Below, piece by piece: positions 3,439 to 64,000 of a DNA stretch of 64,000 nucleotides. The DNA comes from Gammaproteobacteria bacterium (GTDB lineage: Bacteria > Pseudomonadota > Gammaproteobacteria > UBA4575): NCBI GenBank assembly GCA_965222615.1, contig CBDCUI010000007.1:224001-288000 (forward strand), given 5' to 3'. Made by a program: the position numbers and the translations under genes. The notes under the pieces were generated by a model, which did no database searches, was not told the DNA's origin, and saw only the letters and a list, made by a program, of their open reading frames with translations. Numbering within the stretch: position 1 is the first letter of the stretch; each line of letters opens with the position of its first letter.

Positions 3439-3444
3439 ACTCTT

Positions 3445-7017: not shown

Positions 7018-7094
7018 AAGGCGTAATTTATTGCTTATATCTATGCAATAGCTACATTATTGTTGAATATTGTAATCCCTTTGCAATACAAATA

Positions 7095-7175
7095 AATGAT
7101 AGGAACAAAATCGGACCTAATTAAGGTTTGAAGTATCCAATAACAAATATTAGGACCGATAACGTCCCTATCATT
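7095..7175. promoter_or_regulatory. 27-bp imperfect inverted repeat pair with 27-bp spacer (candidate operator)
   Basis: 7095-7121 AATGATAGGAACAAAATCGGACCTAAT versus reverse complement of 7149-7175 AATGATAGGGACGTTATCGGTCCTAAT (22/27 identical). Confidence 0.6.
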
Positions 7176-7247
7176 GTAAAAAGAATTCTCCTCATTACTA
7201 TATTTGTAAGTCTTAAAATATCTAAGCAAATAAGTCGGACATTTTTA

Positions 7248-7478
7248 ATGAGGGACGATGATAAAATTGTATCGCTGGAAGATATGGATACAGCGATTTT
7301 AAGCCTTGAGGGTTGGGAACTTAAAAAAGTTTTTGAAGGCGCCCCTAAGCATACTGTAGAAATCTTTGAAACGGCGATGGAATATGCTGAAAAGCTTGCC
7401 GAGTGTTACACAGTTGGCTATCGGCCTGTGAAAAGCAATAAAAGTGTTTTTGTAGATATCTATGTAAATAAAAAATAA
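7248..7478 (+). CDS. Small hypothetical protein (about 76 aa, MRDDDKIVSLED...)
   Basis: Protein-like composition from the internal ATG; the 7128 start lies inside the inverted repeat. Confidence 0.45.
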   Translation: MRDDDKIVSLEDMDTAILSLEGWELKKVFEGAPKHTVEIFETAMEYAEKLAECYTVGYRPVKSNKSVFVDIYVNKK

Positions 7479-7902
7479 AGCACTTCTAAATTTCCCTCCA
7501 ATTTATTACTTAACAAACTAGAAAAACATCTAGCTTGCATAGTAAAAGTTGTGTTGCGCATATTAAAGAAAATAACTAAGTTACTGCGATAAAATGCACT
7601 TTTGTAGACAGTCCCATATTAAGACAGGAAATAATAATTAATGCTTAAAATAGTTAAGTTATGTGAAGAAAATTATTATAAAGGCATCATAGCGAAATAT
7701 GTCTGCATCAATGATCCAACCAATCTCCACACAATTAAGTGATTACCTACCTCCACTTAAAAGCATTTACCAAAATTTGTTGAGTAACTGACCTAGAACA
7801 ATAAACTTCTAAGCATAGGTGTATACACTTTAATGTAAGTGGCTTATGGAGTTATGCCGTTAATCGAAAACAATGGTCATGAATTTAACGAAGGAAAATG
7901 CT

Positions 7903-8019
7903 ATGAAAGATCATAACGTAAGTGACAATAGCAAAAGCCCCATAATAACAGTGGTTTGGGTATTACTAACTATTACTGTTTTTGTAGTGTTATTTGGAAC
8001 TCTACTAACCTTTTTATGA
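7903..8019 (+). CDS. Small single-TM protein (38 aa), below the ORF-track cut-off
   Basis: AAGGA then ATG; MKDHNVSDNSKSPIITVVWVLLTITVFVVLFGTLLTFL*. Confidence 0.4.
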   Translation: MKDHNVSDNSKSPIITVVWVLLTITVFVVLFGTLLTFL

Positions 8020-8284
8020 GCACTTAGTAATAAGTCTACTAACACCGCAGCAAATTTTTTAAACTCATAAAAATTGGATCGACTTGTTGGATTAATAGTA
8101 CTTGCAACTAAAAATCTGATGTTAAGCATCTGAAAATTACTTATTAAAAAACGTATTTATGTGCCACACATGTTTAGCTATAAACATTTTACGTAATATT
8201 TAGCCTAACATTGAGCTTTATACTCTCTATTAAATTCAACTCCTGCCTAAATTACATTTTCATATTTAAAAACGAAGCTTGGTC

Positions 8285-26919: not shown

Positions 26920-28023
26920 GGCAGATTCTAGATCCAAGTGCACCACTAACTTAAGTGGCAGGACATGAATTCTTATCCAAGTAAAATGAGGTTTTCGAGA
27001 TCTTATTTTAGCAGGAGGGATTCATGTCCTACGTACATGTTAGCGCAAAAGAACGTCATACATTAATGTATTTGTTGCATCTTCGTTTCAGTTATCGAGA
27101 GATTGGACGTCGATTAGGCCGTCATCACAGCACCATCTCAAGAGAAGTCAAACGTAATGGTCGCAGGTCTGGTTGGAGTTATTGGGATGAATACGCGCAG
27201 TGCCAAGCGCAACAGCGTAAACGTCAGCCTCGTCATCGGAGAAGACGAGATCATCAAACACTCTATAACAAGGTCATCGCGTACTTACGCCAAGGCTGGT
27301 CCCCGGATGCCATCAGTGGCTGGTTGCGCAGACATTACAAGAAGCGTTCTCGCGTACAGGTCTGCACAGAAACGATTTATCAGTGGATCTATTGTGATGC
27401 CCAAACAGGCGGCACGTTATATCACTATTTAGCCTCGCAGCATAAGAAGCGCAAACGACAGCCTTTGAATAGGCTCAAAACGATCGGCATTTCACATCGA
27501 GTAGGGATTGAACATCGTCCTGATCATATTGAAAAAAGACAACGACTAGGCCATTGGGAAGGCGATACGGTGGAAGGGGCCAAAGGCTGTGGCGGTGTGG
27601 TGACCTTAGTCGAACGTAAAAGCCGGTTTCTTCTTGCAGGTTTGCTTAAAGACAAACAAGCCCTCACCTTTAGTCAAGTTTCACAACAAGCACTTAAAAA
27701 CATTCCAAGTACACTATGCAAAACATTGACCTTGGACAATGGGAAAGAAAATGTCCTGCATCAACAAATCAGCCAATCAAAAAAGATGAAGATCTATTTC
27801 ACCGATCCGTATTCACCTTGGCAACGCGGTACCAATGAACAAACCAATGGTTTATTGAGAAGAACCTTTCCTAAAGGAACTGATTTTCGTAAAGTATCTA
27901 AACAACAACTTAAAAAAGCCGTTAAACGCATTAATCAACGACCTCGTAAAATACTCAACTACTTAACACCTGAGGAAGTTTTTATGAATGCCGTGAATGG
28001 TGCACTTTGAATTGGAACTCGCC
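26920..28023 (+). mobile_element. IS30 family insertion sequence (1104 bp)
   Basis: 26-bp terminal IRs GGCAGATTCTAGATCCAAGTGCACCA (26920-26945) and reverse complement of 27998-28023 (19/26 identical); TAA on both flanks (26917-19, 28024-26). Confidence 0.9.
27024..28010 (+). CDS. IS30 family transposase
   Basis: LGRHHSTISREVKRN HTH, GHWEGDTV, TLDNGKE, PYSPWQRGTNEQTNGLLR, INQRPRKIL. Confidence 0.96.
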   Translation: MSYVHVSAKERHTLMYLLHLRFSYREIGRRLGRHHSTISREVKRNGRRSGWSYWDEYAQCQAQQRKRQPRHRRRRDHQTLYNKVIAYLRQGWSPDAISGWLRRHYKKRSRVQVCTETIYQWIYCDAQTGGTLYHYLASQHKKRKRQPLNRLKTIGISHRVGIEHRPDHIEKRQRLGHWEGDTVEGAKGCGGVVTLVERKSRFLLAGLLKDKQALTFSQVSQQALKNIPSTLCKTLTLDNGKENVLHQQISQSKKMKIYFTDPYSPWQRGTNEQTNGLLRRTFPKGTDFRKVSKQQLKKAVKRINQRPRKILNYLTPEEVFMNAVNGAL

Positions 28024-47829: not shown

Positions 47830-48117
47830 TTACTTATGGGCGATGGGTTTATCAGTAAATAAATAGTCTTTTAGTTCTTTGTCAAATGCAGGATCTTTAC
47901 GTCTAATCCACTCTAAAACCATCGCTGCATGCTCTTTTTCTTCATCTCGATTATGTGCAAGAATAGCTTTTAAATCTGAATCACTACACGCATCGACACG
48001 CTGATTGTACCAATCAACTGCTTCAAGCTCTTCCATTAAAGAAGTAATTGCACGATGCATATCTCGTGTTGCACTGGAGAGCTCATCAATAGATTCATGG
48101 TAACCTTCATTTGCCAT
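47830..48117 (-). CDS. Encapsulin-associated-type ferritin-like protein (EncFtn), short form
   Basis: YHE...LS..TRDMHRAI.SL.EELEAVDWYNQR...HNRDEEKEHAAM.LEW.RR. Confidence 0.9.
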   Translation of the reverse strand: MANEGYHESIDELSSATRDMHRAITSLMEELEAVDWYNQRVDACSDSDLKAILAHNRDEEKEHAAMVLEWIRRKDPAFDKELKDYLFTDKPIAHK

Positions 48118-49698: not shown

Positions 49699-49926
49699 TT
49701 ACCAATGCTCCCATATTTCCCAATAGGTAGTACCATCTTTAACAAACTTTCTGATGCCAGCTTTACGTTTATGCTCTAGTGCCTTTTTATATGCTTTACC
49801 TTCAGCCGAAGAACCTTCTGCTTCTTGGCGAGTTTGAAAGTAAGTCACAAAGTGCCAACCTTTCCTATTCAATATGCCAGTATCAAGCCCATCGAGTTTT
49901 TCCACCTGATCCGGTTCTTCACTCAT
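49699..49926 (-). CDS. Small hypothetical protein
   Basis: 75-aa ORF with protein-like composition; no family recognised. Confidence 0.55.
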   Translation of the reverse strand: MSEEPDQVEKLDGLDTGILNRKGWHFVTYFQTRQEAEGSSAEGKAYKKALEHKRKAGIRKFVKDGTTYWEIWEHW

Positions 49927-50013
49927 CTAAATTGCCCCGAAATTATTGTTTGAAATAAAGCGTCAAATATTTGACATTGCGAATTAAGCGCATTAGCAGT
50001 AATAATATACGCC

Positions 50014-50313
50014 ATGTTTCATGTTTGCCACTATAAAAACCAACGTCTTATACCTTCTGTACACAAAAATCACCCTCGTGATTACTACGCCACTTTTTGC
50101 ATTGATAATGGCAAAACAACAAGGTGCTTTACTATACGCCCCAATTTCAAAACCGAGGGACAAGCCAGAGAAGCTGCTTATAAAGTGGGTCGTGCGAAAA
50201 TAGACTCAATCCTAGAAGAAAATAAATGGGATCATCTGTCCAAAAAATTCCAACGGCTTATGCAACCCAAAAAAGGAGAAAAACGAAAAGCCGAGACAGT
50301 TTATATAGATTAA
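50014..50313 (+). CDS. Small hypothetical protein
   Basis: YK....P.V...F.T...A..AA...G..KID pattern shared with 50887..51183. Confidence 0.6.
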   Translation: MFHVCHYKNQRLIPSVHKNHPRDYYATFCIDNGKTTRCFTIRPNFKTEGQAREAAYKVGRAKIDSILEENKWDHLSKKFQRLMQPKKGEKRKAETVYID

Positions 50314-50886
50314 CAAAACCAGTTTGCTATTTATCCAGCAGTACAATACTTATCTAGCCACTGATAGAATCAACTCTAACTACTAATAATTTAAATACCA
50401 AGTGCTTTTAGTTATTTAATTAACTATTTAAGCAGTGCACTTAGTGTATGCATTAAATTAAGTAACTGTTCTTCAACAAAAGGATTATAATCCATACAGC
50501 AACTGCTAGGCGCTCCGTCTTTTTCTGTTTACACACTGACTTTGACATGACTATTGTCATTGGAATGTACGCAATATCTCTATTAAACATATAAGATTGA
50601 ATAACGACAAATAGCACTTGGGTTAAAGTGGCATTTGTTCTCATTAATGATTAGTGATAAACAAGCTAAAGCAAATTATTCCTTTATAAATTTCTAATAC
50701 GTATCTCAGAAAGTTTCATATAACTGGTAGTTTTCTATATTTATTAAACTGATTCATATCATAGTTCATAGTTAAGATCTATCATTGAAGTTATTAATTT
50801 ATACAGCTATATTATTGGCCATCAATATGTCTATTGTTGGTTACTGTTAAAAATTAAAGTTTTGTTGAATTAGGGTTGGAGTTAAA

Positions 50887-51183
50887 GTGAAAAAATATCC
50901 TGTCATGGAATACAAGGGCTTTAAATTTCAGCCTATTGTAATGGCTACAGAGACAGAGGTTGATAGTCCAGGCACTTGGTATGAATACACCATCAAGGGT
51001 TGGCGCGGCAGGAGAAGCTGCGTAATTAGAGGACAGAGCTTATTCCGAGACCCTGATAAGGCCGCTCAAGCCGCGATTGAATTTAGTGAAAGCAAAATCG
51101 ATGAACATTTATCAAAATTTTACAGTTCACTTTTTTACAGGTTTATTTGCACAATAGGCTACTGTCCGGCATCTAAATATTAA
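50887..51183 (+). CDS. Small hypothetical protein, apparent paralogue of 50014..50313
   Basis: GGAG RBS; YKGF..QP.V...F.....A..AA......KID. Confidence 0.6.
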   Translation: MKKYPVMEYKGFKFQPIVMATETEVDSPGTWYEYTIKGWRGRRSCVIRGQSLFRDPDKAAQAAIEFSESKIDEHLSKFYSSLFYRFICTIGYCPASKY

Positions 51184-51488
51184 TTATTGTTAATTTTTCC
51201 GAGAAAAAATTGGCTGCGTATTGAGCCACTACAGAATATCTTTACTATCCAACTTTGCATAAATTTAGATTTCACACATCAGACAGCACAAATAATCAGT
51301 GAGTTAATATTAACTAATCTACTTCTTTGTATTCTATTAACGGTAACTCACTAACGAAAACTTAACAAAAGCTAGATAATACCTTAACAATAATAGCGTA
51401 CTTTCAGATTTCTAGATGTGGTTCAATTTTACTAGCTCGATTTTGAGGGATAATATTAAAAAGCGACCTTTTTGCAAAAAGGAATGAG

Positions 51489-51647
51489 ATGAGGGAATTA
51501 AAAATAGCTGATTTAATTGTGGTTGGTTTATTCGTTATCGGAACCATCGTAGCATTTACTCAATCTACTAATTCAGAAACAACAGCTGAAAACAATATCG
51601 CTGAAACTCCAACACTTCAAGATGAAGTGATTGAGCCCGCAAGCTAG
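51489..51647 (+). CDS. Small membrane-anchored protein (52 aa), below the ORF-track cut-off
   Basis: AAGGA RBS; MRELKIADLIVVGLFVIGTIVAFTQSTNSETTAENNIAETPTLQDEVIEPAS*. Confidence 0.55.
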   Translation: MRELKIADLIVVGLFVIGTIVAFTQSTNSETTAENNIAETPTLQDEVIEPAS

Positions 51648-51739
51648 TAAGCACGACTCTCTTATATGAGTAATTACTAAGTTTCGTAGTACCCTACATT
51701 AATTTTTTCATAGCTTCAGACAGAGAAACTACTCTCTTT

Positions 51740-52621
51740 TTACTGCAAAAGCCAAGCAACAAGCATTCGGATTTGTGCGTCATCTAGGCGCTTTTCAAAA
51801 GCTGGCATAACACCATTGCGTCCGTCCGCAATAGTTTGGCGTAAAGCAGCATCGGAATTACCATACAACCAGACGTCATCGCTAAGTCTTGGGGCACCCA
51901 GTGCGACATTGCCCTCACCTTCCATACCATGACAAGCCACACAGTTTTGTTGGAACAGCTTACCTCCTGCAGTAGTGGCGGTAGCGGCATCACCTGAAGC
52001 AAGTGTTTTAATGAAATTGATAAGCTGCGTTACTCCTTCTTCCCCAATAATATTTTGCCAGCCAATCATCGCTGCCTTACGTCCATGCTTTATAGTCTGC
52101 ATGATTTCGGATTCACTGCCGCCCCACTGCCAATCAGCATCATGTAAATTAGGAAATGCGTCGGCCTGCCCTTCGCCATTTGGTCCATGGCAAACCGCAC
52201 AATTTTGAATAAAAATACGTTGTGCCGTATTCATAATAGTCGTATCGTTTTGCAGCTCTGTAATGGAGCGCTGTACAATGTTGCTGCGCATTTGCGCAAA
52301 CTTTTCATCATAATGTATGAGACTTTGATCAAGCCTCCCACCTTGCGACCACTTTAGCATTCCGCTGAACGACCCAAGACCTGGATATAACATCAAATAC
52401 ACAACTGAAACCACTAGTGCAATTAAAATCATCCAAAACCACCACATCGGCGCAGGGTATGACCCTTCACTGAGTGTTTCGTCCCAAATCGGTGACTTAG
52501 ACTCTTCGTACTTATTTGCTGAAAAATAAATGCTGAAAATTAACCATAACAAGCCTAACAAACTGGTGATTGTTATAGCAACAATCCATCCTCCCCAAAA
52601 ATCTGTCGGCATATCAGCCAT
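51740..52621 (-). CDS. ccoP: cbb3-type cytochrome c oxidase subunit III
   Basis: WDETL.E...P.P.WW, YPGLG, CAVCH and CVACH, PNL.D.DW.WGG, GRNGVMPA. Confidence 0.93.
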   Translation of the reverse strand: MADMPTDFWGGWIVAITITSLLGLLWLIFSIYFSANKYEESKSPIWDETLSEGSYPAPMWWFWMILIALVVSVVYLMLYPGLGSFSGMLKWSQGGRLDQSLIHYDEKFAQMRSNIVQRSITELQNDTTIMNTAQRIFIQNCAVCHGPNGEGQADAFPNLHDADWQWGGSESEIMQTIKHGRKAAMIGWQNIIGEEGVTQLINFIKTLASGDAATATTAGGKLFQQNCVACHGMEGEGNVALGAPRLSDDVWLYGNSDAALRQTIADGRNGVMPAFEKRLDDAQIRMLVAWLLQ

Positions 52622-52757
52622 CGCGATACTCGTCTTCTAACGGAATACGTTCCGCTTTTTTTAAAGAATCATTCGAAGATTTCATCGAAACCCAAATGAC
52701 AACTCCGATCATGAATGCCATTACCAACATATCGCCAGCAAAAATAAAATAAGTCAT
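52614..52757 (-). CDS. ccoQ: cbb3-type oxidase small subunit
   Basis: 47-aa ORF between ccoO and ccoP: MTYFIFAGDMLVMAFMIGVVIWVSMKSSNDSLKKAERIPLEDEYRDG. Confidence 0.8.
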   Translation of the reverse strand: MTYFIFAGDMLVMAFMIGVVIWVSMKSSNDSLKKAERIPLEDEYRDG

Positions 52758-52759
52758 CA

Positions 52760-53383
52760 CTATTCTCCCAGCGAATATGCAGTACCAAGAACTTGTAGGT
52801 AGGCAATTAGGGCATCCAATTCAGACTTTTCCTCCAGCGTTGATTCTGCGGTTTCAATGTCTGTGTCGGAATAAGGATGCCCAAGCCTTTGTAAGGCACT
52901 GAGTTTATTGACAATATCGCGATCTTCATTGGCCGGTCGTTGAGCCAGCCATGGGTAGGCCGGCATGATGGAGTTAGGGACCACATCACGAGGATTGAGC
53001 AAATGGATGCGGTGCCAATCATCTGAATACTTGCCACCAACACGATGTAAATCAGGTCCGGTACGTTTTGAACCCCATAAAAAAGGTCGGTCATAAACAA
53101 ATTCGCCGGCACGAGAAAAAGTGCCATAACGCTGTATCTCGGCCACTAGAGGACGAATTTGTTGTGAATGACAAGTGCTACAGGCTTCGCGAATGTAGAT
53201 ATCACGACCGACTAATTCTAGTGGCTTGTAAACTTGCACATTATTAGTTGGTGTAACAAGCGATTCTTGAAACAAACTTGGAAGCACTTGCACAAGTCCA
53301 CCAATCGCTGACACAAACAAAATACCAAAAATGAGTAGACCAACATTTTTTCCCAATAGTTGATGTAATCTAAAGGCGCTCAT
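52760..53383 (-). CDS. ccoO: cbb3-type cytochrome c oxidase subunit II
   Basis: [39 protein letters not shown]. Confidence 0.95.
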
Positions 53384-54822
53384 GCGACAGCCTCCGATAC
53401 TATCGGTGGTCTAACCGCAATCGTGCGACGACCTATTATTGTATTTATAAAATTATAGGCCATTAGCAAAGTGCCAAATAAAAATAGAAGTCCTGCAACA
53501 AAACGAAGTAAATAATAAGGACCCATTGCAGCCATGATTTCTGTAAAGCTATAACGAAGTTCGCCTAGTTCATCTAAACTAAGCCATAAAACCCCTTGCG
53601 AGATTCCAGCACCCCACATAGCTACTATGTAAAGCATCGTGCCTGCAAGCGCTAACCAAAAATGGAGATTTGCCAAGCGCACACTATACAGTTCAGCACC
53701 AACAAGCCTGGGCACAAGAAAATAGAAGGTTCCATAGGTTATGAGTGCATTCCAACCTAGTGCACCAGAATGCACATGCCCGATGGTCCATTCTGTGAAA
53801 TGACTAATGACATTAACGCTTTTGATTGCAAGCATCGGCCCTTCGAATGTAGCGAGTCCATAAAAAGCCAGTGCAAGTACAATGAATTTCAGTGCGGGGT
53901 CCGAACGAAGTTTTTGCCATGCTGTACTAACCGTCATGATTCCGTTAATCATCGATGCCCAGGATGGCGCAAGTAGTACCAGACTCATGACCATACCTAA
54001 ATTTTGCACCCATTCTGGAACGGCGTTGTAATGCAAGTGATGCGGTCCAGCCCAGATGTAGCTATAGGTAAACGCCCAAAATGCAACAATCGAAAGTTTA
54101 TAACTCCAAATTGGTCGTTCGGCCTGCTTGGGTAGAAAGTAATACATCATTCCAAGAAAGCCACCTGTCAATAAAAAACCTACAGCATTATGACCGTACC
54201 ACCATTGTACGATTGCATCCTGTGCACCGGCATATAAAGAATATGACTTGGTCAAGGTAACCGGTATAGCGAGGTTATTGACGATATGCAGCATCGCTAT
54301 AACGATAATTAAACCACCATAAAACCAATTCGATATGTAAATCTCTTTTATCCGCCGCTTGGCAATCGTGCCAAAGAACACAATTGCAAAACACACCCAA
54401 ACCAGCGTTATAGCAATATCAAATGGCCATTCAAGTTCCGCATATTCTTTTGAACTATTAAAACCAGCGAGTAGAGATAGTCCACCTAACAGTATGGCAA
54501 TTTGCCAAGCCCAACAGGTAAACCAGGCAAGATTCGTTGCATAAAGACGTACATGGCTAGTGCGCTGTACACTGTAATATGCCGTTCCCATGAGTGCTGA
54601 AACACCAAAGCCAAAGATCACCACATTTGTGTGAAAGGTTCGCAATCTACCAAACGATAACCACGACTGCTCAAAGCTCAACCCTGGCCAAACAAGTTCC
54701 GCAGCGACATACACTCCAGCCAACATACCAATTAATGCCCAAAAAATTGAAAACATTACTAAGATTGTAACAATGCGATCACTGTAGATTTCAACGGATA
54801 AATTTTTAGCGGGATCAGACAC
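53380..54822 (-). CDS. ccoN: cbb3-type cytochrome c oxidase subunit I
   Basis: [49 protein letters not shown]. Confidence 0.96.
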
Positions 54823-54824
54823 CG

Positions 54825-55439
54825 TTAAACCCCCATTGAAGGACCAATTCCATTGATCCAGAAAAATACGGTGATGCCTAGTAGACTAACGAGTGCAACT
54901 AGCAAATAACCAATCAATGACGAAGCCATCAACATGCCACGTTCAGGTGTAGTGTGTAAGACGATTGGCAAACCACGGTAAAGTAAGTACATACTCCAGA
55001 TAAGTGCTGGTATCAGTACAAGAATATTGATAAAAACATCTGGATATAGATGAATAATACTGCCCACTGCTAACGGGGCACCCACAACTGTGATCATGGC
55101 AAAATGAATACCAAGCGAATGTCTTGCGCCATAGGTGCTTGCCATCCATTGCGACACGATTGCGGTACTAATAAATCCAAATAATAGTGCACAAAAGTAA
55201 GCGAGGCTAATTCCGAATAATAGTTCTTTTTGTAAAAGCAGAGGCTCAACCGTACCCAAACGCCATCCAAATTTCGATGTGCCTAGAAAAGCAAATAGTG
55301 GTGGTAAAATCCCAAACCAAAGAGCGACTTTAAAAAATACCGATGTGGGTGATGGTTTTAATTCAGACAATTGTTGAAATACAACATTCGGCTGAAACAG
55401 CAACCGAATCATCAATAATGGTGAAAATGATTGTGGCAT
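54825..55439 (-). CDS. Yip1 / DUF1282 family membrane protein
   Basis: LLFQP...F, GT...GW, WMA.TYG, YLLY.GLP....T..ERG; ends 2 bp before the ccoN start. Confidence 0.8.
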
Positions 55440-55583
55440 AGTAGTTAGGATTTATAGTCAGTAATTTCGTATTTAATATTTTTACCTAAATAACTATTAA
55501 TAACCGCTATGCTTACGTTGAAAAGTCGTGTGGTTTATTTTTTATAAGAAAACATAAAATATACTAAGTATTTTTATATATTA

Positions 55584-55597
55584 TTGATCCAGGACAA
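55584..55597. promoter_or_regulatory. FNR-type binding site upstream of the yip1-ccoNOQP operon
   Basis: TTGAT-CCAG-GACAA versus consensus TTGAT-N4-ATCAA (8/10). Confidence 0.6.
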
Positions 55598-55651
55598 ATA
55601 ATGATTAATTACTATGAACATCTGGATTTACAACACGAGTTGCTATTAAGC

Positions 55652-55685
55652 AAAAAAAAAACCGCAGTTGAAATAACTGCGGTTT
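55652..55685 (-). terminator. Intrinsic terminator closing the GST-GST-monooxygenase operon
   Basis: Stem AAACCGCAGTT-GAAAT-AACTGCGGTTT with an A-tract at 55652-55660 (U-tract on the minus strand). Confidence 0.85.
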
Positions 55686-55729
55686 AATAAGTACTAGAAG
55701 AAACTTATATTATTACAAAAATGTAATAT

Positions 55730-55936
55730 TTATATTTTCCAGTGAAAGGCTTCTTCCCCGGAAATCGCAAAAAACATCCAGACATCAATAAGCAACACAA
55801 TTAAGAAAATAATTGACGTTCCCAGTGCCCAGAATGGGTTAAAGTGATGATCACCAACACCTATTGCATACAGTATAAAGCCCACCACACCTGTAAACGC
55901 GGCAATGGCTAGCAAAGCAAGTTGAACTTTAGACAT
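55730..55936 (-). CDS. Small 2-TM membrane protein (68 aa)
   Basis: GAGG RBS before ATG 55936; two hydrophobic helices joined by a GDHHFNP loop. Confidence 0.7.
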   Translation of the reverse strand: MSKVQLALLAIAAFTGVVGFILYAIGVGDHHFNPFWALGTSIIFLIVLLIDVWMFFAISGEEAFHWKI

Positions 55937-55964
55937 TACGAATACCTCGCATATTAAACAATTA

Positions 55965-57149
55965 TTAATCTGGTTTTTCGCACAATGGCATGTCATACCA
56001 CCCTGCGTTGTAATTCATACGAGCAGCGATCTTACGTTCGCCTTCGCTGGCTCTATTCTCATCCCAGTCTGCAAGACGAGGTTTAATGAATTTTTCCCAA
56101 AGCGGTGGTACCAGTAACAATGCAAGCATCGCATAGTAGCCATAGCCCGTATCAGGAGCACCACAATCTTCTAACTCCCAGAAATGAGTTTCACCGCGGT
56201 CATGGTGGTCGGCCTGACGACCGATTTCAATGAAACCCCATTGGGTAAAGGGTGACTCGCCTACATCCCAAGAATGATGGTAATCAATCGGCTGACCTTT
56301 TTCTCGAATCAAACCATAGTGCTCTAAGTAATTAAGCACTTCTAATTCAAATGCTGAAATCACCCAGCTACCTACCATGACTCCTAAACCGATCCAACCA
56401 GCTGCAAACCAAAACATGAAAATGGTTGGAAGACTCATGGCATAACCGCGTATCCAACGATTTTGCCAAGAGATAAATGGCACACCTAACCTCGCCAGGC
56501 GTTGTTTCTCCATCACATATAAAAATCTGGATTGGCCAAAGTGAGAAAGCAGATAATGCTTATAAATGCTGCGACCTCTTGGTGAAGTAGCCGGATCATC
56601 TTCACAGCCTAATTCCAAGTGATGGTTGTAGACATGGGCATAGCAAAAATGTGCAATACCGCTTAGCGCCATCATCCAGCGTGCCAGTACAAAGGTAGGC
56701 CCTTTGGTATGGGCAAGCTCGTGCCCAAACATGATACCTAGCCCCATATAGATGCCTGCGGACACCGTAGCTCCATACATTTGCCAGCCGGTGACACCAT
56801 GATGAATATCTATTCCGAGTATTTGATTAGGTCCAAAAGAATTGCCGGTGGCAAACTCATATACACGCCACACCAGCGCGAGTTGCAGCATGACAAACAC
56901 CGGATACTGTGCCCACATCATTACCTTTAATAACTTGTCGATTCCATATAGATCACCATTGGCATCTCGGCCTGCAGGCTCCGCATGAATGGACTTAGCC
57001 GCACTGGTGGCCCAGTCGACAATCACAGACAAGATTAAAAGAACCACTCCTGTCCACACCCATGGACCGCCAATTACAAGGCCTACCATGGTTAGGAAAA
57101 TTAGAGCAGGTGTTTCGAAATATCGAAGATTTACTAAAAATTTATGCAT
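55965..57149 (-). CDS. Membrane di-iron monooxygenase, AlkB/XylM family (XylM-like C-terminus)
   Basis: His boxes HELAH, HVYNHH, NYLEHYG, RQADHH; DPATSPRG; C-terminus PPLW...KPRL.DWD...A..GER..A...N..AGW as in XylM. Confidence 0.88.
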   Translation of the reverse strand: MHKFLVNLRYFETPALIFLTMVGLVIGGPWVWTGVVLLILSVIVDWATSAAKSIHAEPAGRDANGDLYGIDKLLKVMMWAQYPVFVMLQLALVWRVYEFATGNSFGPNQILGIDIHHGVTGWQMYGATVSAGIYMGLGIMFGHELAHTKGPTFVLARWMMALSGIAHFCYAHVYNHHLELGCEDDPATSPRGRSIYKHYLLSHFGQSRFLYVMEKQRLARLGVPFISWQNRWIRGYAMSLPTIFMFWFAAGWIGLGVMVGSWVISAFELEVLNYLEHYGLIREKGQPIDYHHSWDVGESPFTQWGFIEIGRQADHHDRGETHFWELEDCGAPDTGYGYYAMLALLLVPPLWEKFIKPRLADWDENRASEGERKIAARMNYNAGWYDMPLCEKPD

Positions 57150-57216
57150 CGTTAACTTCTCCCTACTACTTAAGTAAATTATAGCTTTGTTTAAACCTCA
57201 TTATTATTTATTTTAT

Positions 57217-58026
57217 TTAAAAATCACTAATTCGTATATGCTTAAGACGCCCTTGTAAGGTTTCTTCTGCACTAGGCAGCATGTCGTAAGCAACAATATC
57301 CTGGCCACACTGGCTTTTTCTGGATTTAATTCGATTAAACCAGCTTTTGATATTCTTTCTTTCATCAATTAATGCACCACAGCCGGCAACCTCGCAAAGA
57401 TGGCAATACGCCGTCCAATGAAGATCTGCCCAGGTGTACTTGTCACACACAATGTATTTATTACTTTCTAATTGCTTGTCCAAAGCATCAAAAAATACCT
57501 TAAGGTCTTCACCACAGGCATTAATCACTTCCATATCAGGTGAATAAGATGGATCGTCTATTTTCTTTTTAATGGCTTCGTCAGCAATACGGTTTACACA
57601 CGGTGCAACATTCGTGACCGCGATATCAACCCAATAATTTTGCATAGCTGCCAACGCAGCATTACGTGGTGTCAACGCATATCCCAATCCTCTCGCATCG
57701 GCAAAGGCAGTAATGGCATCACCACCACAAGTTACGAAATCTAACTCTTTTACACAAGGCGTGATAGAAAATGGAGAAATTTCTGCAATTAAATCATCCT
57801 GATTATCAACTGCATCGGTAACCATACTATAGCAATCCATTTCCATACCTTGTTCCGCCGCCGTGATAATACATTTGAGGGTATCTGCATCAGATGGACA
57901 ACCGACCAGTTCAAGCACATATTGTGTTTTTTTCAAGTCACCTGCTAGTCCATAACGTGACTCATCGGTACTTTCAGTTTTTTCACATCCAGCTTTTTCA
58001 GCCATTAATTCGAATATATCTGACAT
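57217..58026 (-). CDS. GST-fold protein B (Cys-rich, N-terminal extension)
   Basis: ISPFSITPCV (cis-Pro region), ALDKQL...YIV...TWADLHW N-cap motif, NIKSWF.RI..R. Confidence 0.8.
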   Translation of the reverse strand: MSDIFELMAEKAGCEKTESTDESRYGLAGDLKKTQYVLELVGCPSDADTLKCIITAAEQGMEMDCYSMVTDAVDNQDDLIAEISPFSITPCVKELDFVTCGGDAITAFADARGLGYALTPRNAALAAMQNYWVDIAVTNVAPCVNRIADEAIKKKIDDPSYSPDMEVINACGEDLKVFFDALDKQLESNKYIVCDKYTWADLHWTAYCHLCEVAGCGALIDERKNIKSWFNRIKSRKSQCGQDIVAYDMLPSAEETLQGRLKHIRISDF

Positions 58027-58066
58027 AACTATTTCCTGTTTTAATTTTTTATATATCTAGAAAACC

Positions 58067-58681
58067 TTATGCGGCCACTTTTTCAGCTTTGGTATCATAA
58101 CCAGGAATTTCGGTTTTCATTTTAGTCAACCATTTACTGATATTTCCATACTTACTAAGCATGTCACCGTGACCCTCTTCTTCTAAGACCTTACACACAG
58201 CAGACCAATGAATATCAGCAAGAGAAAACTCACCTACAATATAATTTTTATCCACAAGATTATTATCAAGACTTTCTAGAACGGCTGTCGCCTGATCTAC
58301 ATTACTAGCGAGATCACCCATAATTGACTCACATTTAGTTCGAAGCACTTGAGTCCAGTATTGTTGCATTGCCAATACTCTTGCTTTTCTCGGATGGATG
58401 GAGGGAGTTTGTCCTTTGATATTTAAATACGTTAATACTGCGCTAGCGCCACATACGGTAAAATCGCCATCCTCAATACAGGGATAACGTTCAAGACCCG
58501 ACATCTTCATTGACGCCGACATCTTATCCTCAAGAACAGAGGATTCGCCCCATTCAATCTCGACAGGCAGTTTTCTGTATGACGCTAAAAAGATACATTT
58601 ATAGGAGCCAGCATCACCAGATTTACAGATAAGTTTCAGTTTGTCGCCAGCTTTTTTTTGTTTTGAACCAAATAAACCCAT
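58067..58681 (-). CDS. GST-fold protein A
   Basis: YPCIEDGDFTV.G..AVLTYL, LDNNL....YIVGEFSLADIHW, NISKW; GGAG RBS supports ATG 58681. Confidence 0.8.
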   Translation of the reverse strand: MGLFGSKQKKAGDKLKLICKSGDAGSYKCIFLASYRKLPVEIEWGESSVLEDKMSASMKMSGLERYPCIEDGDFTVCGASAVLTYLNIKGQTPSIHPRKARVLAMQQYWTQVLRTKCESIMGDLASNVDQATAVLESLDNNLVDKNYIVGEFSLADIHWSAVCKVLEEEGHGDMLSKYGNISKWLTKMKTEIPGYDTKAEKVAA

Positions 58682-58860
58682 AATAGAAATCTCCAAATAT
58701 TAATTGCTATGGCATTACTTAAGTATAGACGAGGTCGAAATCTAGCCCCTACCAAAAAACAACACCCAAAATAAGGGATATAACCCCTCTATCTGTTATA
58801 AATGCTAGTCCTTTAACAAAATTATGTAAAATAGAATACTAATATCTCCCGTATAAAGTC

Positions 58861-58874
58861 CTGACTTAAGTCAG
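58861..58874. promoter_or_regulatory. CRP/FNR-type palindrome in the GST-A / fnr divergent promoter
   Basis: Perfect palindrome CTGAC-TTAA-GTCAG; weaker copy CTGAT-CTGG-GGCAG at 58925-58938. Confidence 0.5.
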
Positions 58875-59049
58875 CAAAAAATTAGGCTAATTATTTTCTG
58901 TAACAGAAGTCAGTTTCATTTATACTGATCTGGGGCAGGAAAGATTGATTTTTTGCTTGCATTAAAAATTCAAGCATCAATCCAGGTACACAAGTTACTT
59001 AAAAGATGGGCATTACCAAATATGGAAGTTAACAAATATCTATAGCGCA

Positions 59050-59796
59050 ATGACTACTCTTACCAAACAAAAAATAATCCTCAAACCATTGAAGGCTTCC
59101 TGCCAAAACTGCTCCTTGGTTGAACTATGCCTACCTAGAGGCTTAAGCAATAGCGATTTAAGCACTTTAGATGATGTTATTCAGCAACGTCGATTAGCGC
59201 ATAAGGGTGAAGTAATTTTTAGCCAAGGCGAAAAATCCGGTTGTATCTTTGCGGTAAGATCCGGTTCTGTAAAAACCTACACAACTGCAAAAAACGGTGA
59301 AGAACAAATTTTAGGCTTTCATCTTCCTGGGGAGCTACTTGGCTTGGACGGTTTAGATAATCAAATACACAGCTGTTCGGCAGTGGCTCTGGATACCGCC
59401 ACCATATGTGAAATGCCGGTAATTGATCTAAGTATTCTATGTGTAAAAATGCCTGGGTTACAACAGCGACTCCTCAGCTTGATTAGCAACGAGATTACTA
59501 AAGACCATACCATGCTATTGTTACTAGCAAGACGTAACGCCGAACAGAAACTAGCAACGTTTTTCATTGACATATCTGGCAGACTAAAGGAACGCGGTTA
59601 TTCAGCCGATGAATTTGATTTAACAATGAGCCGATACGATATTGGAAACTATTTAGGACTAGCGGATGAAACAGTAAGCAGATTGATATCAAAATTTAGA
59701 GAAAATAATATTATCAATGCGGACAGAAAAAAAATATCAATTCTTGATCACTATTCACTGTACCAAATTGCTGAGGGTGATTATAGTCTCAATTAA
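59050..59796 (+). CDS. fnr: Fumarate/nitrate reduction regulator (O2-sensing [4Fe-4S] FNR/Anr)
   Basis: CQNCSLVELC, GEEQILGFHLPGELLG, fourth Cys in TICE, MSRYDIGNYLGLADETVSR. Confidence 0.92.
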   Translation: MTTLTKQKIILKPLKASCQNCSLVELCLPRGLSNSDLSTLDDVIQQRRLAHKGEVIFSQGEKSGCIFAVRSGSVKTYTTAKNGEEQILGFHLPGELLGLDGLDNQIHSCSAVALDTATICEMPVIDLSILCVKMPGLQQRLLSLISNEITKDHTMLLLLARRNAEQKLATFFIDISGRLKERGYSADEFDLTMSRYDIGNYLGLADETVSRLISKFRENNIINADRKKISILDHYSLYQIAEGDYSLN

Positions 59797-60045
59797 TTTT
59801 TTAGTTAACCAAACCAAATGCTACTGTGAAAAATCGGGGCATGATCACAGCGCTGAAATAATTACTTTAGCGCCTTTATTTTTTACATTTTTATATTAAA
59901 AACAGACATCTAATTAAGTGCTTACAAATAAAAATTAGTTTCAATTTTTAGTATTTGCGCTTAAAATAGTATTAAGAACATACAAGTTCAAAACAAAATT
60001 TATAAACCATTTATATAATCAATAAACTCAAACTTAAGTACAATT

Positions 60046-60414
60046 ATGGATCAATCTCTATACGAAAAAATTGGTGGCGAAGAGACTGTTACAAAAGCAG
60101 CAAACTTTTTATATGTAAATATATTACATGATGATCGAATAAAAGATTTCTTTGATGATGTCGATATTGATAAACAAAAACGTAAAATGACAGCTTTTTT
60201 AACCTATATCTTTGGGGGACCATCACTTTATCTCGGTAAAGATATGCGCAGAGCACATAAAGACGCTGTTGAACACGGCTTAAGCGATGAGCATGTGGAC
60301 GCAATGATGGAATGCGTTCATACGACCTTGAATGAAATTGGCATTGAAAAAGACTTAGTAATTGAAGTTATTAATAAAATAGAACAACATCGGGATGACG
60401 TACTTAACAAGTGA
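60046..60414 (+). CDS. Group I truncated haemoglobin (2/2 globin)
   Basis: SLYEKIGG, D.RI..FF, FL....GGP..Y.GKDM..AH. Confidence 0.9.
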   Translation: MDQSLYEKIGGEETVTKAANFLYVNILHDDRIKDFFDDVDIDKQKRKMTAFLTYIFGGPSLYLGKDMRRAHKDAVEHGLSDEHVDAMMECVHTTLNEIGIEKDLVIEVINKIEQHRDDVLNK

Positions 60415-60640: not shown

Positions 60641-60654
60641 TTGATCTAAATCAA
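60641..60654. promoter_or_regulatory. Consensus FNR box upstream of the cytochrome c gene
   Basis: TTGAT-CTAA-ATCAA, 10/10 match. Confidence 0.8.
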
Positions 60655-61208: not shown

Positions 61209-61598
61209 TTAATTTTCATTATCAAGTATAGTTTTTACACGCTCAATAAAGTCTCTTTCTATAATTGGGCGTTCAACAAAATCTGTGGCTCCTGCTTGAA
61301 TTGCTTTGACTGCTGTGTTCACACTATTATTTCCATCTGCTAGAACTACTACAGGTGTTGAAAGGCCATGTTCACGCATTTGTTTAATCAAAGTAATACC
61401 ATCTGAGTCATCAATTTTAATTTCTGTAATTAAACACGCAGGCGCTTCTGAAATCGGTTCGTTTATAAAGTCCTGAGCATTTTTAAAAGTCTTAACTTCT
61501 GTCGGCAATTTACTCAATATCTCTACAAGTTGCTTACGTATATCATCATTGCTAACGATTAAATGAATTGGCTTATTTTTAGTTAACTTCCAAATCAT
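61209..61598 (-). CDS. Stand-alone receiver-domain protein (FixT-like) with degenerate active site
   Basis: Receiver fold (F.NAQDF, PACLITE, DG..L, AVKAIQAGATDF..RP); phospho-Asp replaced by Glu. Confidence 0.75.
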   Translation of the reverse strand: MIWKLTKNKPIHLIVSNDDIRKQLVEILSKLPTEVKTFKNAQDFINEPISEAPACLITEIKIDDSDGITLIKQMREHGLSTPVVVLADGNNSVNTAVKAIQAGATDFVERPIIERDFIERVKTILDNEN

Positions 61599-61788
61599 TG
61601 ATTTATTAAATTACTCCTTTAGACTCGTCAAGCGATGGAGCGGCCTTTAATGATGGTGACACGGTTCGAGGCACTGAGATAATGACCTCGATCAATTTTC
61701 AGATCACCAATTGGCTGCCAACCTCAAAATCATGTGAATAATGGCGCCTAAGAGCTGAACAAAAATATGATATGAGTTGTGGAGATTT

Positions 61789-62406
61789 TCAACTGTGAGC
61801 ACCCAGCATTATTTTGACTAGTTCAGCTACAGATTTTGCACCAAGTTTTTCCATAGCATGAGAGCGATGAATTTCTACTGTGCGATTGCTAATATCAAGC
61901 TCACGAGCAATAGTCTTATTTACTTTTCCCTCTAGCACTTTATCAACAACTTCACGCTCTCGTGTAGTTAATGAATTTACACGTTCTTGTAAAGTATGTT
62001 GAGCTTTAAGTTGTTTTCGATTTGAATTATCTTGCTCAAGTGCTTTTGTTATGCAATCTAATAGTTCTTGATCTCGAAATGGTTTCTGCAAAAACTCATG
62101 GGCACCATCTTTCATTGCTTGCACAGCCATAGTTATGTCACCATGGCCAGTCATGATTATTAATGGTTGAGTTACACCTAGTTCGTTTAATCTATGTTGC
62201 AACTCTATGCCACTCATGCCTGGCATACGCACATCTGCAAGCACACAGCCTGATTGCTTAGAATCAAATTCGTCTAGGAATTTACTTGCAGACTCAAATG
62301 CTTTAGCTTGCAACCCGATAGATTCAAGCAATTCAACTAAGCTGTCACGTACGTCTGCATCATCATCGACAATATATACAGTTTGTTGTTCTTCACTCAT
62401 GTTCAT
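61789..62406 (-). CDS. fixJ: FixJ-family response regulator
   Basis: VYIVDDD, ADVRMPGMSG, TGHGD..MAV.AMK.GA, LT.RE, NK.IA.EL.IS.RTVE.HR. Confidence 0.88.
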   Translation of the reverse strand: MNMSEEQQTVYIVDDDADVRDSLVELLESIGLQAKAFESASKFLDEFDSKQSGCVLADVRMPGMSGIELQHRLNELGVTQPLIIMTGHGDITMAVQAMKDGAHEFLQKPFRDQELLDCITKALEQDNSNRKQLKAQHTLQERVNSLTTREREVVDKVLEGKVNKTIARELDISNRTVEIHRSHAMEKLGAKSVAELVKIMLGAHS

Positions 62407-64000
62407 CTAATGCGGTAGGCAAAGTAAAATGAAATGTAGTACCCTTATCTGAATTACGTGTAAACCACAAGCGTCCACCATGTGTTTGTATAATAGAGTG
62501 GCAAATGGCTAGGCCCATACCCATACCTGTTTGCTTAGTCGTATAAAAAGGATTAAACAACTGTTCTGCAGCTTCATCGCTAATACCACAGCCATAATCT
62601 CTTATCGATACTTCTATTCGATTTTCATCAGCCAATAATGCAGAACTAATCATAATTTGCTTATACTTTTCAGTTTCATTTGCCGCGGCATCCATGGCAT
62701 TACGAATTAGATTTAAGATAACTTGTTGAATCTGAATAGAGTCCGCCATAGCACTAGGTAAGTTATTATCAAGTTGTAATTTTATTGTGAATTCAACTGC
62801 CTGCGTATCTGCTTGTGACATTTTTACGGCATCCTCTATTAGGTTATTAATATTAAAATAGTTATGCGGCTTAGTTTCACGCTTTACCATAGAACGCAGT
62901 CGAGAAATGACGCCCCCAGCTCGCAATGAAGCCTTAGATATCTTCTCCAGCAATTCTTGCAACTTTTGAAAATCTACTCCATCGGCACTAATCCTACGTT
63001 GTGCGGCCTGGGCATAGGAGTCAATTGCAGTGAGCGGTTGATTGATTTCATGAGCAATACCCGCAGCCATTTCACCCATCATGACCACACGATCCATATG
63101 CGCAAGTTGTTCTTGTTGGACTTTAGCCTTTTCTTCTGCTGCAATTTGTTCAGTAATATCTAAGACATGTGAAATTAGTAGCGCAGGCCGGCCATACTCA
63201 TCATGTGCTAAAGTAATATTCTCGTGCACCATCGCAACATTCAAAATAACATTGATAACTTTTTTATCTTTACGGATATAACGCTTATCTAAGCTATAGC
63301 CCGAAAAATCCCCTTTAAGAAGCTTATTTAAATATTTGCTACTGATTTCTATATCATCAGGATGAGTAATATCTTTATAAGACAATTGCAATAACTCTGG
63401 TTTCGAATACCCTAAAATATCACATAAGGATGGATTTACATTTGTATAATTTCCATCTAGATCTAACACAGCAATTCCTGTGGGTGCATTTTCAAAAATT
63501 AACTTGAATTCTTCTTTTCGTAAACGCAATGATTCTTCGGCTTTTTTTCGCTGTGTAATATCTAAAATTATTGCTACAAAAGCAGGCTTAGATTCATAGT
63601 TCGAAAGCTCAAGATGTACTTCAACAGGATAGTTACTGCCATCTTTACGTTTATGCTTGGTTGTAAATATTATTTTATCTTGTTCGCCTGTTCGCAAAGG
63701 ATGAATGAGTTCTTGGAATTCTTCTAATGAATATTCTGGCTTAATATCTAATGGTGTAAGCTTTATAATTTCATCTCCACTATATTGCAAATTTTCCAAT
63801 GCCCCCTTATTTACACGAACAAAACGTAAAGAATTTGCATCAAAAATATAAATTTCATTAAGTAAGTTCTCTAGAATATGCTCATAACTAGAAGCTTTTT
63901 CTAAATAGTTTTTTTCTAAAGTTAGATCACGAATAAATCCAGTAAAAAATCGTTGCCCACTTTCAAAAAATTCAGCCACAGAAACCCAAATCGGAAACAC
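62393..64000 (-). CDS. fixL: FixL-like multi-PAS sensor histidine kinase (5'-partial)
   Basis: FP..VSV.E......FFTGFIRDLT (end of a FixL-like PAS), two further PAS domains, GEMAAGIAHEINQPLTAI, QIQQVILNLIRNA, PFYTTK..GMGMGLAI. Confidence 0.75.
   Translation of the reverse strand: MFPIWVSVAEFFESGQRFFTGFIRDLTLEKNYLEKASSYEHILENLLNEIYIFDANSLRFVRVNKGALENLQYSGDEIIKLTPLDIKPEYSLEEFQELIHPLRTGEQDKIIFTTKHKRKDGSNYPVEVHLELSNYESKPAFVAIILDITQRKKAEESLRLRKEEFKLIFENAPTGIAVLDLDGNYTNVNPSLCDILGYSKPELLQLSYKDITHPDDIEISSKYLNKLLKGDFSGYSLDKRYIRKDKKVINVILNVAMVHENITLAHDEYGRPALLISHVLDITEQIAAEEKAKVQQEQLAHMDRVVMMGEMAAGIAHEINQPLTAIDSYAQAAQRRISADGVDFQKLQELLEKISKASLRAGGVISRLRSMVKRETKPHNYFNINNLIEDAVKMSQADTQAVEFTIKLQLDNNLPSAMADSIQIQQVILNLIRNAMDAAANETEKYKQIMISSALLADENRIEVSIRDYGCGISDEAAEQLFNPFYTTKQTGMGMGLAICHSIIQTHGGRLWFTRNSDKGTTFHFTLPTALDEHE

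Follow-up and report, generated by a model that had tools for sequence, protein, structure and literature searches.

We analysed a 64,000-nucleotide stretch of a gammaproteobacterial genome (lineage UBA4575; contig CBDCUI010000007.1, positions 224,001 to 288,000), hereafter called the window, and focused on a four-gene cassette on its minus strand (58681..55730). The cassette encodes two proteins of the glutathione S-transferase (GST) fold, named GST-A and GST-B, an AlkB/XylM-like oxygenase and a small membrane protein. In our preferred reading, held with moderate confidence from sequence comparisons, it is a low-oxygen, FNR-activated isoform of a lineage-specific subfamily of XylM/AlkB-type oxygenases that is accompanied by GST-fold and two-transmembrane (2-TM) accessory proteins. 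The architecture of this system is better settled than its chemistry.

The four co-oriented open reading frames (ORFs) are separated by gaps of 40, 67 and 28 bp, and a Shine-Dalgarno-like motif is found 5' of each. GST-A (58067..58681, minus strand; 204 residues, N-terminal MGLFGSKQKK) was taken to start at the ATG at 58681, served by a GGAG ribosome site; the ORF listing begins at a TTG at 58696. It is followed on the same strand by GST-B (57217..58026; 269 residues, with an N-terminal extension), by the membrane di-iron oxygenase, referred to below as the hydroxylase (55965..57149; 394 residues, type 1 paralogue), and by a 68-residue 2-TM protein with two hydrophobic helices and a conserved loop (55730..55936). 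A longer ORF of 88 residues for the last gene begins at 55996. It is a mere upstream extension, because conservation across 50 homologues begins at the internal methionine. In Pfam, only the C-terminal GST domain is matched by GST-A and GST-B (GST_C, 3.3e-5 and 4e-8, respectively). An intrinsic terminator with an 11-bp stem and a T-run (55659..55685, minus strand) closes the operon; over 55400-60100, Rfam gave solely matches below the gathering score, all falling on this terminator. An earlier note on this DNA had described four co-oriented genes with these gaps, a strong terminator and a palindrome in the promoter shared with fnr, and it was accurate at every point checked.

A scan of species-representative genomes returned 279 loci, of which the best 80 (numbered with the prefix L) were kept, their ORFs called and searched with the window proteins and with those found later. 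Since only these 80 were kept, failure to retrieve a second locus for a given genome means little. Host labels are those of marine gammaproteobacterial metagenome-assembled or single-cell genomes (Thiotrichales, 'Thiothrix', Ca. Porisulfidus, Ca. Oxydemutatoraceae, Piscirickettsiaceae, Arenicellales, Ca. Thiodiazotropha, Thiohalocapsa, Halochromatium). In 39 loci, named type 1, the hydroxylase is 67-92% identical to that of the window. The 2-TM gene lies 3' of the hydroxylase gene in 38 of them, the contig of L034 stopping at the hydroxylase stop codon, and at least two GST-like genes were counted in 33/39. Of the six loci counted with fewer than two, five (L005, L012, L020, L034, L038) run into a contig end 1-2043 nt from the hydroxylase gene; in L025, the count merged two overlapping GST ORFs, so that the pair is present. 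Hence, none of the 39 is a full-length type-1 locus lacking the GST pair or the 2-TM gene.

Three gene orders were observed: A-B-hydroxylase-TM next to fnr (L001-L013, L019), hydroxylase-TM followed by an opposite-strand fnr and then A-B (L014-L018, L031), and hydroxylase-TM-A-B (L021-L039; A-B occurs twice in L021, L022 and L033). As these orders differ, the linkage exceeds inherited synteny. The neighbourhood survey of the 39 loci therefore establishes as real and conserved the GST-GST-oxygenase-2TM cassette that the earlier note had proposed. The linkage of the GST-fold proteins, the 2-TM protein and the hydroxylase would fit a partnership better than a chance neighbourhood. In lineages lacking fnr, a conserved ORF of about 69 residues that belongs to no family was also seen directly 3' of GST-B (L021:10026-10235 and 13 further loci, L023-L026, L028-L030, L032, L035-L039). 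Moreover, an OmpW/AlkL-type porin gene with FNR-type boxes upstream lies directly 5' of the hydroxylase gene in L014-L018 (L014:6012-6698), and an OmpW-family porin gene, again with FNR-type boxes upstream, lies near fnr in six loci among those closest to the window's, L002-L004, L006, L007 and L009 (about 3000-4200); the window itself contains no OmpW-family porin gene.

The other 41 loci carry more distant hydroxylases. Eleven of them, type 2 (about 60% identity), contain the hydroxylase, in some cases a globin, a small ferredoxin, a third GST-fold protein named GST-R, a reductase and the 2-TM protein. Across types 1 and 2, no other protein accompanies the hydroxylase as faithfully as this 2-TM protein, which has no Pfam family. 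Two hydrophobic segments are apparent in a simple hydropathy scan, and its homologues in the loci have in common fT (helix 1), the loop GvG.HH..P.WALGt and, within helix 2, dvwmFFaia.e....W. In 28/41 loci, type 3, a lone hydroxylase gene is transcribed away from the gene of a CarH-like MerR regulator and/or fabA; the two remaining loci are truncated. All three locus types are found in the complete chromosomes OZ244982.1, OZ245760.1 and OX638335.1. In 7/7 genomes tested, the type-2 hydroxylase gene shares 97.9-100% DNA identity with its type-3 counterpart over the exact length of the ORF (about 1150 bp), while the flanks are unrelated (L051/L057, L071/L077, L042/L041, L058/L080, L055/L060, L070/L069 and L072/L074, at about 6990-8140 in each). 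This points to a recent duplication or to ongoing gene conversion that would keep one enzyme under two promoters. At the type-3 loci (L040:5216-6790 and 27 others), the CarH-like regulator is in an operon with a bona fide fabA. Its best NCBIfam match is CarH, a B12-dependent light sensor, at 1.8e-13, far under the cut-off; in this context, control of the second isoform may be tied to light or lipids.

Between GST-R and the 2-TM gene lies the gene of a Fer2-FAD-NAD reductase, which shares 38% identity with XylA of plasmid pWW0 over 350 residues (E 2e-85). Such a XylA-type reductase adjoins the hydroxylase at all 11 type-2 loci, that is in 11/41 of the more distant homologues, and in 8/39 type-1 loci. 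In the latter, a globin-(ferredoxin)-GST-R-reductase module is located either directly upstream of the hydroxylase-TM-A-B genes (L023, L027, L035, L036, L037) or downstream on the other strand (L024, L032, L039). The complete system is made of eight genes, encoding a truncated globin, a small three-cysteine ferredoxin, GST-R, a XylA-type NADH:ferredoxin reductase, the hydroxylase, the 2-TM protein, GST-A and GST-B, and the window holds half of this set. On the other hand, no rubredoxin, XylA-type or other ferredoxin-NAD reductase or AlkT-like gene was found in the 64 kb, either by Pfam analysis of 71 further window ORFs or by phmmer with reductase, ferredoxin, rubredoxin and AlkT queries, and five rubredoxin queries and one AlkT query gave no phmmer match in the ORFs of the window and the 80 loci. 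Four near relatives of the window locus with 87-91% hydroxylase identity (L003, L004, L008, L009) have a type-2 locus in the same assemblies (L051, L055, L046 and L063, respectively). The eight-gene set is divided over two loci in this lineage, and by analogy the window's own genome would also carry a type-2 locus. The earlier note had called the system reductase-less. This holds for the window locus, not for the system, since the reductase is linked in relatives and at a second, paralogous locus. Among the close homologues, for which that note had set GST-free loci or an adjacent XylA or rubredoxin as evidence to the contrary, the GST genes are kept, and the neighbour seen in 8/39 is the XylA-type reductase, with rubredoxin in none.

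The 394-residue hydroxylase matches FA_desaturase in Pfam (PF00487, 1.8e-25) and is 29% identical to pWW0 XylM over its full length of 394 residues (E 2e-34). Its matches in the Protein Data Bank are solved AlkB structures alone (8sbb, 2.1e-27; 8f6t, 1.8e-24), and the similarity to AlkB is limited to the core, residues ~113-361. Four histidine motifs are recognizable: HELAHT, AHVYNHH, which is XylM-like, NYLEHYGL, an instance of the NYxEHYG(L/M) motif of AlkB/XylM-type (class III) membrane di-iron oxygenases, and RQ(A/G)DHH, which is RQADHH in the window. This last motif reads RHSDHH in AlkB and NHINHH in XylM. Its glutamine, Gln312 in the window protein, is present in all 19 members of the window clade in a maximum-likelihood tree of 26 sequences, 19 of them from the window and related loci; alignments of 14 and of 30 sequences show it without exception. 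In the same tree, the hydroxylases form a clade of their own with 100% bootstrap support, apart from XylM, from the reductase-fused or reductase-linked group of Polaromonas and Hydrocarboniclastica and from rubredoxin-linked AlkB. Relatives in the protein collection number 1141 (E<=0.001), and none of the best 120 falls below 59% identity. All five longer fused forms found are reductase-hydroxylase fusions, an architecture reported to be active on alkanes in the part of PMC8918992 consulted. Type-1 hydroxylases can be told from those of types 2 and 3 by 21 positions, including two in a C-terminal tail, AGW.DMP, which the other two types have in shorter form or not at all.

The loci contain 95 GST-like ORFs, which sort into the three orthogroups A (38), B (39) and R (18). 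Profile matches to solved GSTs cover both domains, the thioredoxin-like N domain and the helical C domain, and support the fold (B, Phi class, 1.3e-28; A, Delta class, 4.8e-25; R, Phi class, 2.8e-19); weak NCBIfam matches to FzlA and SspA were also seen. In GSTs of the Phi, Delta and Theta classes, a catalytic serine, replaced by cysteine in other enzymes, stands at the start of helix 1, and a Glu-Ser pair holds the gamma-glutamyl part of glutathione. We read these positions from alignments of the 95 sequences to the solved GSTs. The catalytic serine is found in none of them, its place being taken by Asp (68), Cys (17), His (5), Asn (3) or Gln (1), with one gap. Asp is present in 35/38 A proteins and in 26/39 B proteins, the latter also showing Cys (6), His (5), Asn (1) and the gap; GST-R has Asp when linked to type-1 loci (7/7) and Cys at type-2 loci (11/11). 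The glutamate of the Glu-Ser pair is Gly in 88/95 and Glu in 0/95, and the cis-proline is kept in 87/95. Both window proteins have Asp for the catalytic serine and Gly for the glutamate.

Beyond these positions, the GST-like family shares the motif RGLG..L.PRNA...Q.YW, and the N-terminal extension of GST-B is conserved (F5, YG..G..KKTQY). The N-terminus of GST-A, MGLFGSKQKK, resembles that of the cluster-linked reductases, 17/18 of which begin with M(F)GLF followed by lysines as judged by eye (examples of the shared tag are window 58067-58681, L042:9691-10773 and L083:4263-5315). A regular expression for this tag matched 14/21 ORFs labelled GST-A and 11/27 labelled reductase, against 2/742 unrelated ORFs, and a similar hydrophobic-basic N-terminus is seen in the three reference XylA-type reductases (pWW0, pNL1, Hydrocarboniclastica). 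Overall, the missing catalytic residues, the reductase-like tag of GST-A, the extension of GST-B and the type-1-specific positions of the hydroxylase suggest a non-catalytic role for GST-A and GST-B, as partners that the hydroxylase recruits on its cytoplasmic side. The earlier note had raised the option of GST-fold partners with a small membrane subunit; it is retained and gains indirect support. The family is narrow: of 1.84 billion cluster representatives, a GST-B profile retrieved only 26 at E<=1e-30, about six of them full-length B proteins. One 439-residue protein, P0248, was considered as a GST-A-GST-B fusion and rejected; its middle third is a low-complexity read-through between two normal halves and was taken as a frameshift artefact.

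Between fnr and GST-A lies an FNR-type box, CTGACTTAAGTCAG (58861..58874), a perfect 14-bp palindrome. A -10-like hexamer, TATTCT (58833..58838, minus strand), is found 22 nt past it, reading toward the GST operon. We aligned this spacer with 12 orthologous ones. The box is kept in 13/13 spacers while the remaining spacer is poorly conserved; its consensus in the orthologues is CTGAT-N4-ATCAG, and the canonical TTGATTTATATCAA occurs in L019. A TAnnnT hexamer is also present downstream of the box in all 13, at 22 nt in 11 and at 21 nt in 2. This distance places the centre of the box near -41.5 of the predicted promoter reading into GST-A. As a class-II activator, FNR binds a TTGAT-N4-ATCAA-like box centred near -41.5. 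The CRP/FNR-type palindrome seen in the earlier note thus appears to be a conserved FNR-type box in putative activator geometry. In six loci, fnr splits the cassette; one box is then located 80-96 nt ahead of the hydroxylase gene and another in the fnr/GST-A spacer, so that both halves have retained the signal. A relaxed box pattern occurs at 9 sites in the window, compared with 3.4 +/- 1.65 in shuffled sequences, 1/100 of which reached 9; across the loci there are 128 sites in 1.06 Mb, about 1 per 8 kb. A second, half-conserved box, CTGCCCCAGATCAG (58925..58938, minus strand), is about 60 bp closer to fnr, within a conserved ...AGATCAG column of the alignment. It is present in full in L002, L004, L006, L009, L010 and L011 and possibly serves fnr autoregulation. 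From the predicted start at about 58826 (minus strand), the leader would be about 145 nt long; it contains a GC-rich hairpin (58773-58789) followed by ATTTTGG and matches no Rfam family.

The wider gene context also bears on oxygen. The fnr gene adjoins the cassette in 18/39 type-1 loci, and a globin gene lies within 7 kb in 13/39. Where fnr is absent and the full cluster present, a FixLJ-like pair abuts the latter (L023, L027, L032, L035, L036, L037), directly 5' of the eight genes in L023, L035, L036 and L037 and on the opposite-strand flank in L032. Judged from promoters and neighbours, the cassette is very probably induced by oxygen limitation, and the product of the divergent fnr gene is its probable activator.

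A working scheme would be as follows. The window hydroxylase would receive electrons from a reductase, and a ferredoxin, encoded in trans. GST-A and GST-B would act as non-catalytic cytoplasmic accessory subunits in docking, gating or assembly rather than as glutathione conjugases, with GST-A reaching the hydroxylase or the membrane through the M(F)GLF-Lys tag of the reductase. The 68-residue protein would be a membrane subunit, and the globin could help O2 supply under scarcity. For the substrate, two classes are both kept open, an external small hydrophobic or methylated compound, such as an alkane or dimethylsulfide (DMS), and an endogenous lipid that would be hydroxylated or desaturated. 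A bolder form of the scheme, which we regard as tentative, makes the GST-fold proteins and the 2-TM micro-protein obligate subunits of an unrecognised class of membrane di-iron oxygenases, in which GST-A, carrying the docking tag of the reductase, would gate or replace reductase docking in a low-oxygen isoform served by the truncated haemoglobin. The family might then be the DMS-cleaving enzyme of Methylophaga and of abundant marine sulfur oxidisers.

Several points weigh against the reading as an FNR-activated oxygenase isoform with non-catalytic partners. The 64-kb window contains neither a reductase nor a ferredoxin gene, and their supply in trans is deduced from sister genomes only. In 21/39 type-1 loci, fnr is not found within 7 kb, and the window box, CTGAC..GTCAG, has only 3/5 matches per half-site to the canonical FNR box. 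The Asp or Cys at the catalytic position of the GST-fold proteins could serve some other catalysis rather than none. A weaker point is that no GST-hydroxylase fusion was seen among the five longer fused forms. Finally, in the portion of PMC10110569 on which we draw, the irons of AlkB are described as held by nine invariant histidines in four motifs. The window enzyme keeps 8/9 of them; the first histidine of the last motif is the glutamine described above, so its chemistry could differ from hydroxylation.

This glutamine also bears on the likeliest alternative, the modification of endogenous lipids, to which we give a minor share of the probability. The enzyme would here be an O2-dependent acyl-chain desaturase or hydroxylase, a functional analogue of DesB/DesC of Pseudomonas, whose low-oxygen isoform would compensate for scarce O2. 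Induction of O2-dependent desaturases under oxygen limitation has precedent, and front-end fatty-acid desaturases carry the same QxxHH variant in their third histidine box. Up to three hydroxylase genes with differing promoters are maintained in genomes that measure only 1.6-2.7 Mb, and the near identity of the two non-FNR copies in the seven genomes suggests a core function. Catabolic genes are not conserved nearby, and in 28/41 lower-identity loci the hydroxylase gene is divergent from fabA and/or the CarH-like regulator. However, the linkage to fabA is limited to a single set of related genomes, where it could reflect inherited synteny. The signatures, including NYxEHYGL, and the full-length homology are those of XylM/AlkB enzymes, not of acyl desaturases, although the tree contained no desaturase reference. 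In addition, an external substrate is suggested by the OmpW/AlkL-type porin gene that adjoins the hydroxylase gene in L014-L018.

Such an external substrate could be an organosulfur compound, an alternative that we consider improbable. The enzyme would hydroxylate a methyl group of DMS or a related compound, yielding methanethiol and formaldehyde, and the GST-fold proteins would handle the thiol or hemithioacetal. It would then carry out the initial reaction in the breakdown of DMS by Methylophaga and provide sulfur or energy to sulfur oxidisers. The kinship with XylM and AlkB, which attack terminal or benzylic methyl groups, is consistent with this, as is the porin gene just mentioned. A GST-B homologue is encoded by Methylophaga thiooxydans (P0239, 42% identity, E ~1e-57). 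During growth on DMS, this bacterium strongly up-regulates a 'fatty acid desaturase' (MDMS009_226), an 'NAD(P)H flavin reductase' (MDMS009_61) and a FadL-like porin; as far as the consulted part of that study goes (PMC6548844), genes for DMS monooxygenase, dehydrogenase and methyltransferase were not found, and its authors allow for a hydrolase or a monooxygenase. The labels are suggestive, as clade members are called 'fatty acid desaturase' at NCBI and the fused reductase 'NAD(P)H-flavin reductase' at JGI; MDMS009_226 and MDMS009_61 would be candidate orthologues of the cassette families. Sulfide, peroxide or oxygen limitation could, however, account indirectly for the induction by DMS, and an FNR-activated promoter is no obvious fit for DMS catabolism. 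A gene of the methanethiol-oxidase family (SBP56) lies 4 kb downstream of the full cluster in L035 (L035:14163-15161), but this is 1/80 loci, and the copy is frameshifted, be it real or an assembly error; we therefore dropped it as a conserved neighbour. A Methylophaga strain growing on hexadecane, mentioned with no gene data in the part of PMC3936186 consulted, was not used as evidence.

The weakest alternative, also drawn from the earlier note, is a hydrocarbon or alkene oxidation module whose two GSTs would conjugate glutathione to an epoxide in the manner of IsoI: the GST fold is certain, glutathione is made by the organism (gshB at window 2-826) and AlkB-type enzymes can epoxidise alkenes, but the absence of the catalytic serine and of the glutamate from all 95 sequences makes such a role of the GST pair unlikely, the hosts are small-genome lineages of chemolithoautotroph type, and neither IsoI-type downstream dehydrogenase or CoA-transferase genes nor alcohol or aldehyde dehydrogenase or other catabolic genes are conserved beside the cassette in the related loci, so that a hydrocarbon-degradation module is not supported and we now strongly disfavour it.

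In the window, the cassette is surrounded by a low-oxygen respiration island. The divergent fnr gene (59050..59796, plus strand) scores 258.5 bits with the NCBIfam FNR model for a cut-off of 228. It is followed by a gene for a group-1 truncated haemoglobin (60046..60414, plus strand), the globin gene being also part of the full cluster in relatives. Further on, a FixL/FixJ-like two-component system (61789..64000, minus strand) reaches 243 bits with the FixJ model (cut-off 255) and has FixL as best match, far under the cut-off. Immediately downstream of the cassette are a Yip1-domain gene and ccoN, ccoO and ccoP of a cbb3 oxidase (51740..55439, minus strand). The Yip1-domain membrane gene (54825-55439) ends 3 nt 5' of ccoN and occupies the same place in at least nine related loci, as though it were a member of the cbb3 operon.

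Other features of the window were observed. A canonical FNR box, TTGATCTAAATCAA (60641-60654), is located 45 nt ahead of a cytochrome c gene (60699), and a relaxed FNR-type box (61682-61695) lies between an orphan receiver gene (61209-61598) and the fixJ-like gene. Downstream of ccoP, the region 49700-51700 has a low GC content (0.32-0.35), short ORFs with no Pfam matches and two relaxed FNR-type boxes (50547, 50749). A gene for an encapsulated-ferritin-like protein (EncFtn; 47830-48117) is also present, beside which the Pfam scan identified no encapsulin shell gene. An IS30-like transposase gene (HTH_38 and rve; 27024-28010) lies between a lipid-transport cluster of the pqiAB/MlaD type and the PEP synthase gene.

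Hydroxylases of this family are common, and their carriers, planktonic sulfur oxidisers of Thiotrichales type, sponge symbionts and Thiodiazotropha clam symbionts, matter to sulfur and carbon cycling in the ocean. With the database labels 'alkane 1-monooxygenase' and 'fatty acid desaturase', gene surveys would, on no evidence, score these carriers as hydrocarbon degraders. Should the GST-fold and 2-TM proteins prove to be genuine subunits, they would define a new AlkB/XylM architecture of biocatalytic interest. The His-to-Gln change at the iron site would be a natural experiment on chemistry, and the possible link to DMS would bear on a climate-relevant flux.

Comparison with known systems places the cassette closest to XylM/XylA of pWW0. 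Besides the full-length homology of the hydroxylase, the two share box 2 (AH..xHH) and the C-terminal KP.L.DWD...GER..A...N..AGW, and the reductase of the relatives is of the XylA kind, with the same kind of N-terminal tag. However, the window hydroxylase belongs to a separate clade with QxxHH instead of HxxHH in the last histidine box, its reductase is unlinked, and conserved catabolic neighbours of the xylB, xylC and xylN type are absent; instead, the family adds the 2-TM protein, two to three GST-fold proteins, the small ferredoxin, the truncated globin and an FNR or FixLJ context. With AlkB/AlkG/AlkT, the cassette shares the fold family and the four histidine motifs, including NYxEHYGL, but the alignment covers the core only, one of the nine iron-ligating histidines is replaced, and rubredoxin and AlkT homologues are absent from the window and the 80 loci. 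The ferr_ferrR_AlkB enzymes of Polaromonas and Hydrocarboniclastica also use a XylA-type electron donor. Their identity to the cassette hydroxylase is about 31%, in a separate clade, and their genes sit in alk-type clusters (GMC oxidoreductase, CoA ligase, aldehyde dehydrogenase, OmpW) that contain no GST-like genes. The isoprene monooxygenase cluster resembles the cassette in that GST genes, isoI and isoJ, adjoin an oxygenase. Its oxygenase is reportedly a soluble, six-component di-iron enzyme and IsoI a catalytically competent GST, whereas the cassette oxygenase is membrane-bound and its GST-fold proteins lack the catalytic residues. SspA and FzlA likewise have the GST fold without the catalytic set. 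Unlike them and the Phi and Delta GSTs, the cassette proteins form a narrow family of three orthogroups with conserved N-terminal extensions and constant linkage to a membrane oxygenase. The literature searched held no report of any GST class tied to a membrane oxygenase, and no description of the cassette or of such accessory proteins for any AlkB/XylM enzyme. We would class the system with XylM/XylA, as a variant whose accessory proteins that literature does not describe for AlkB/XylM enzymes.

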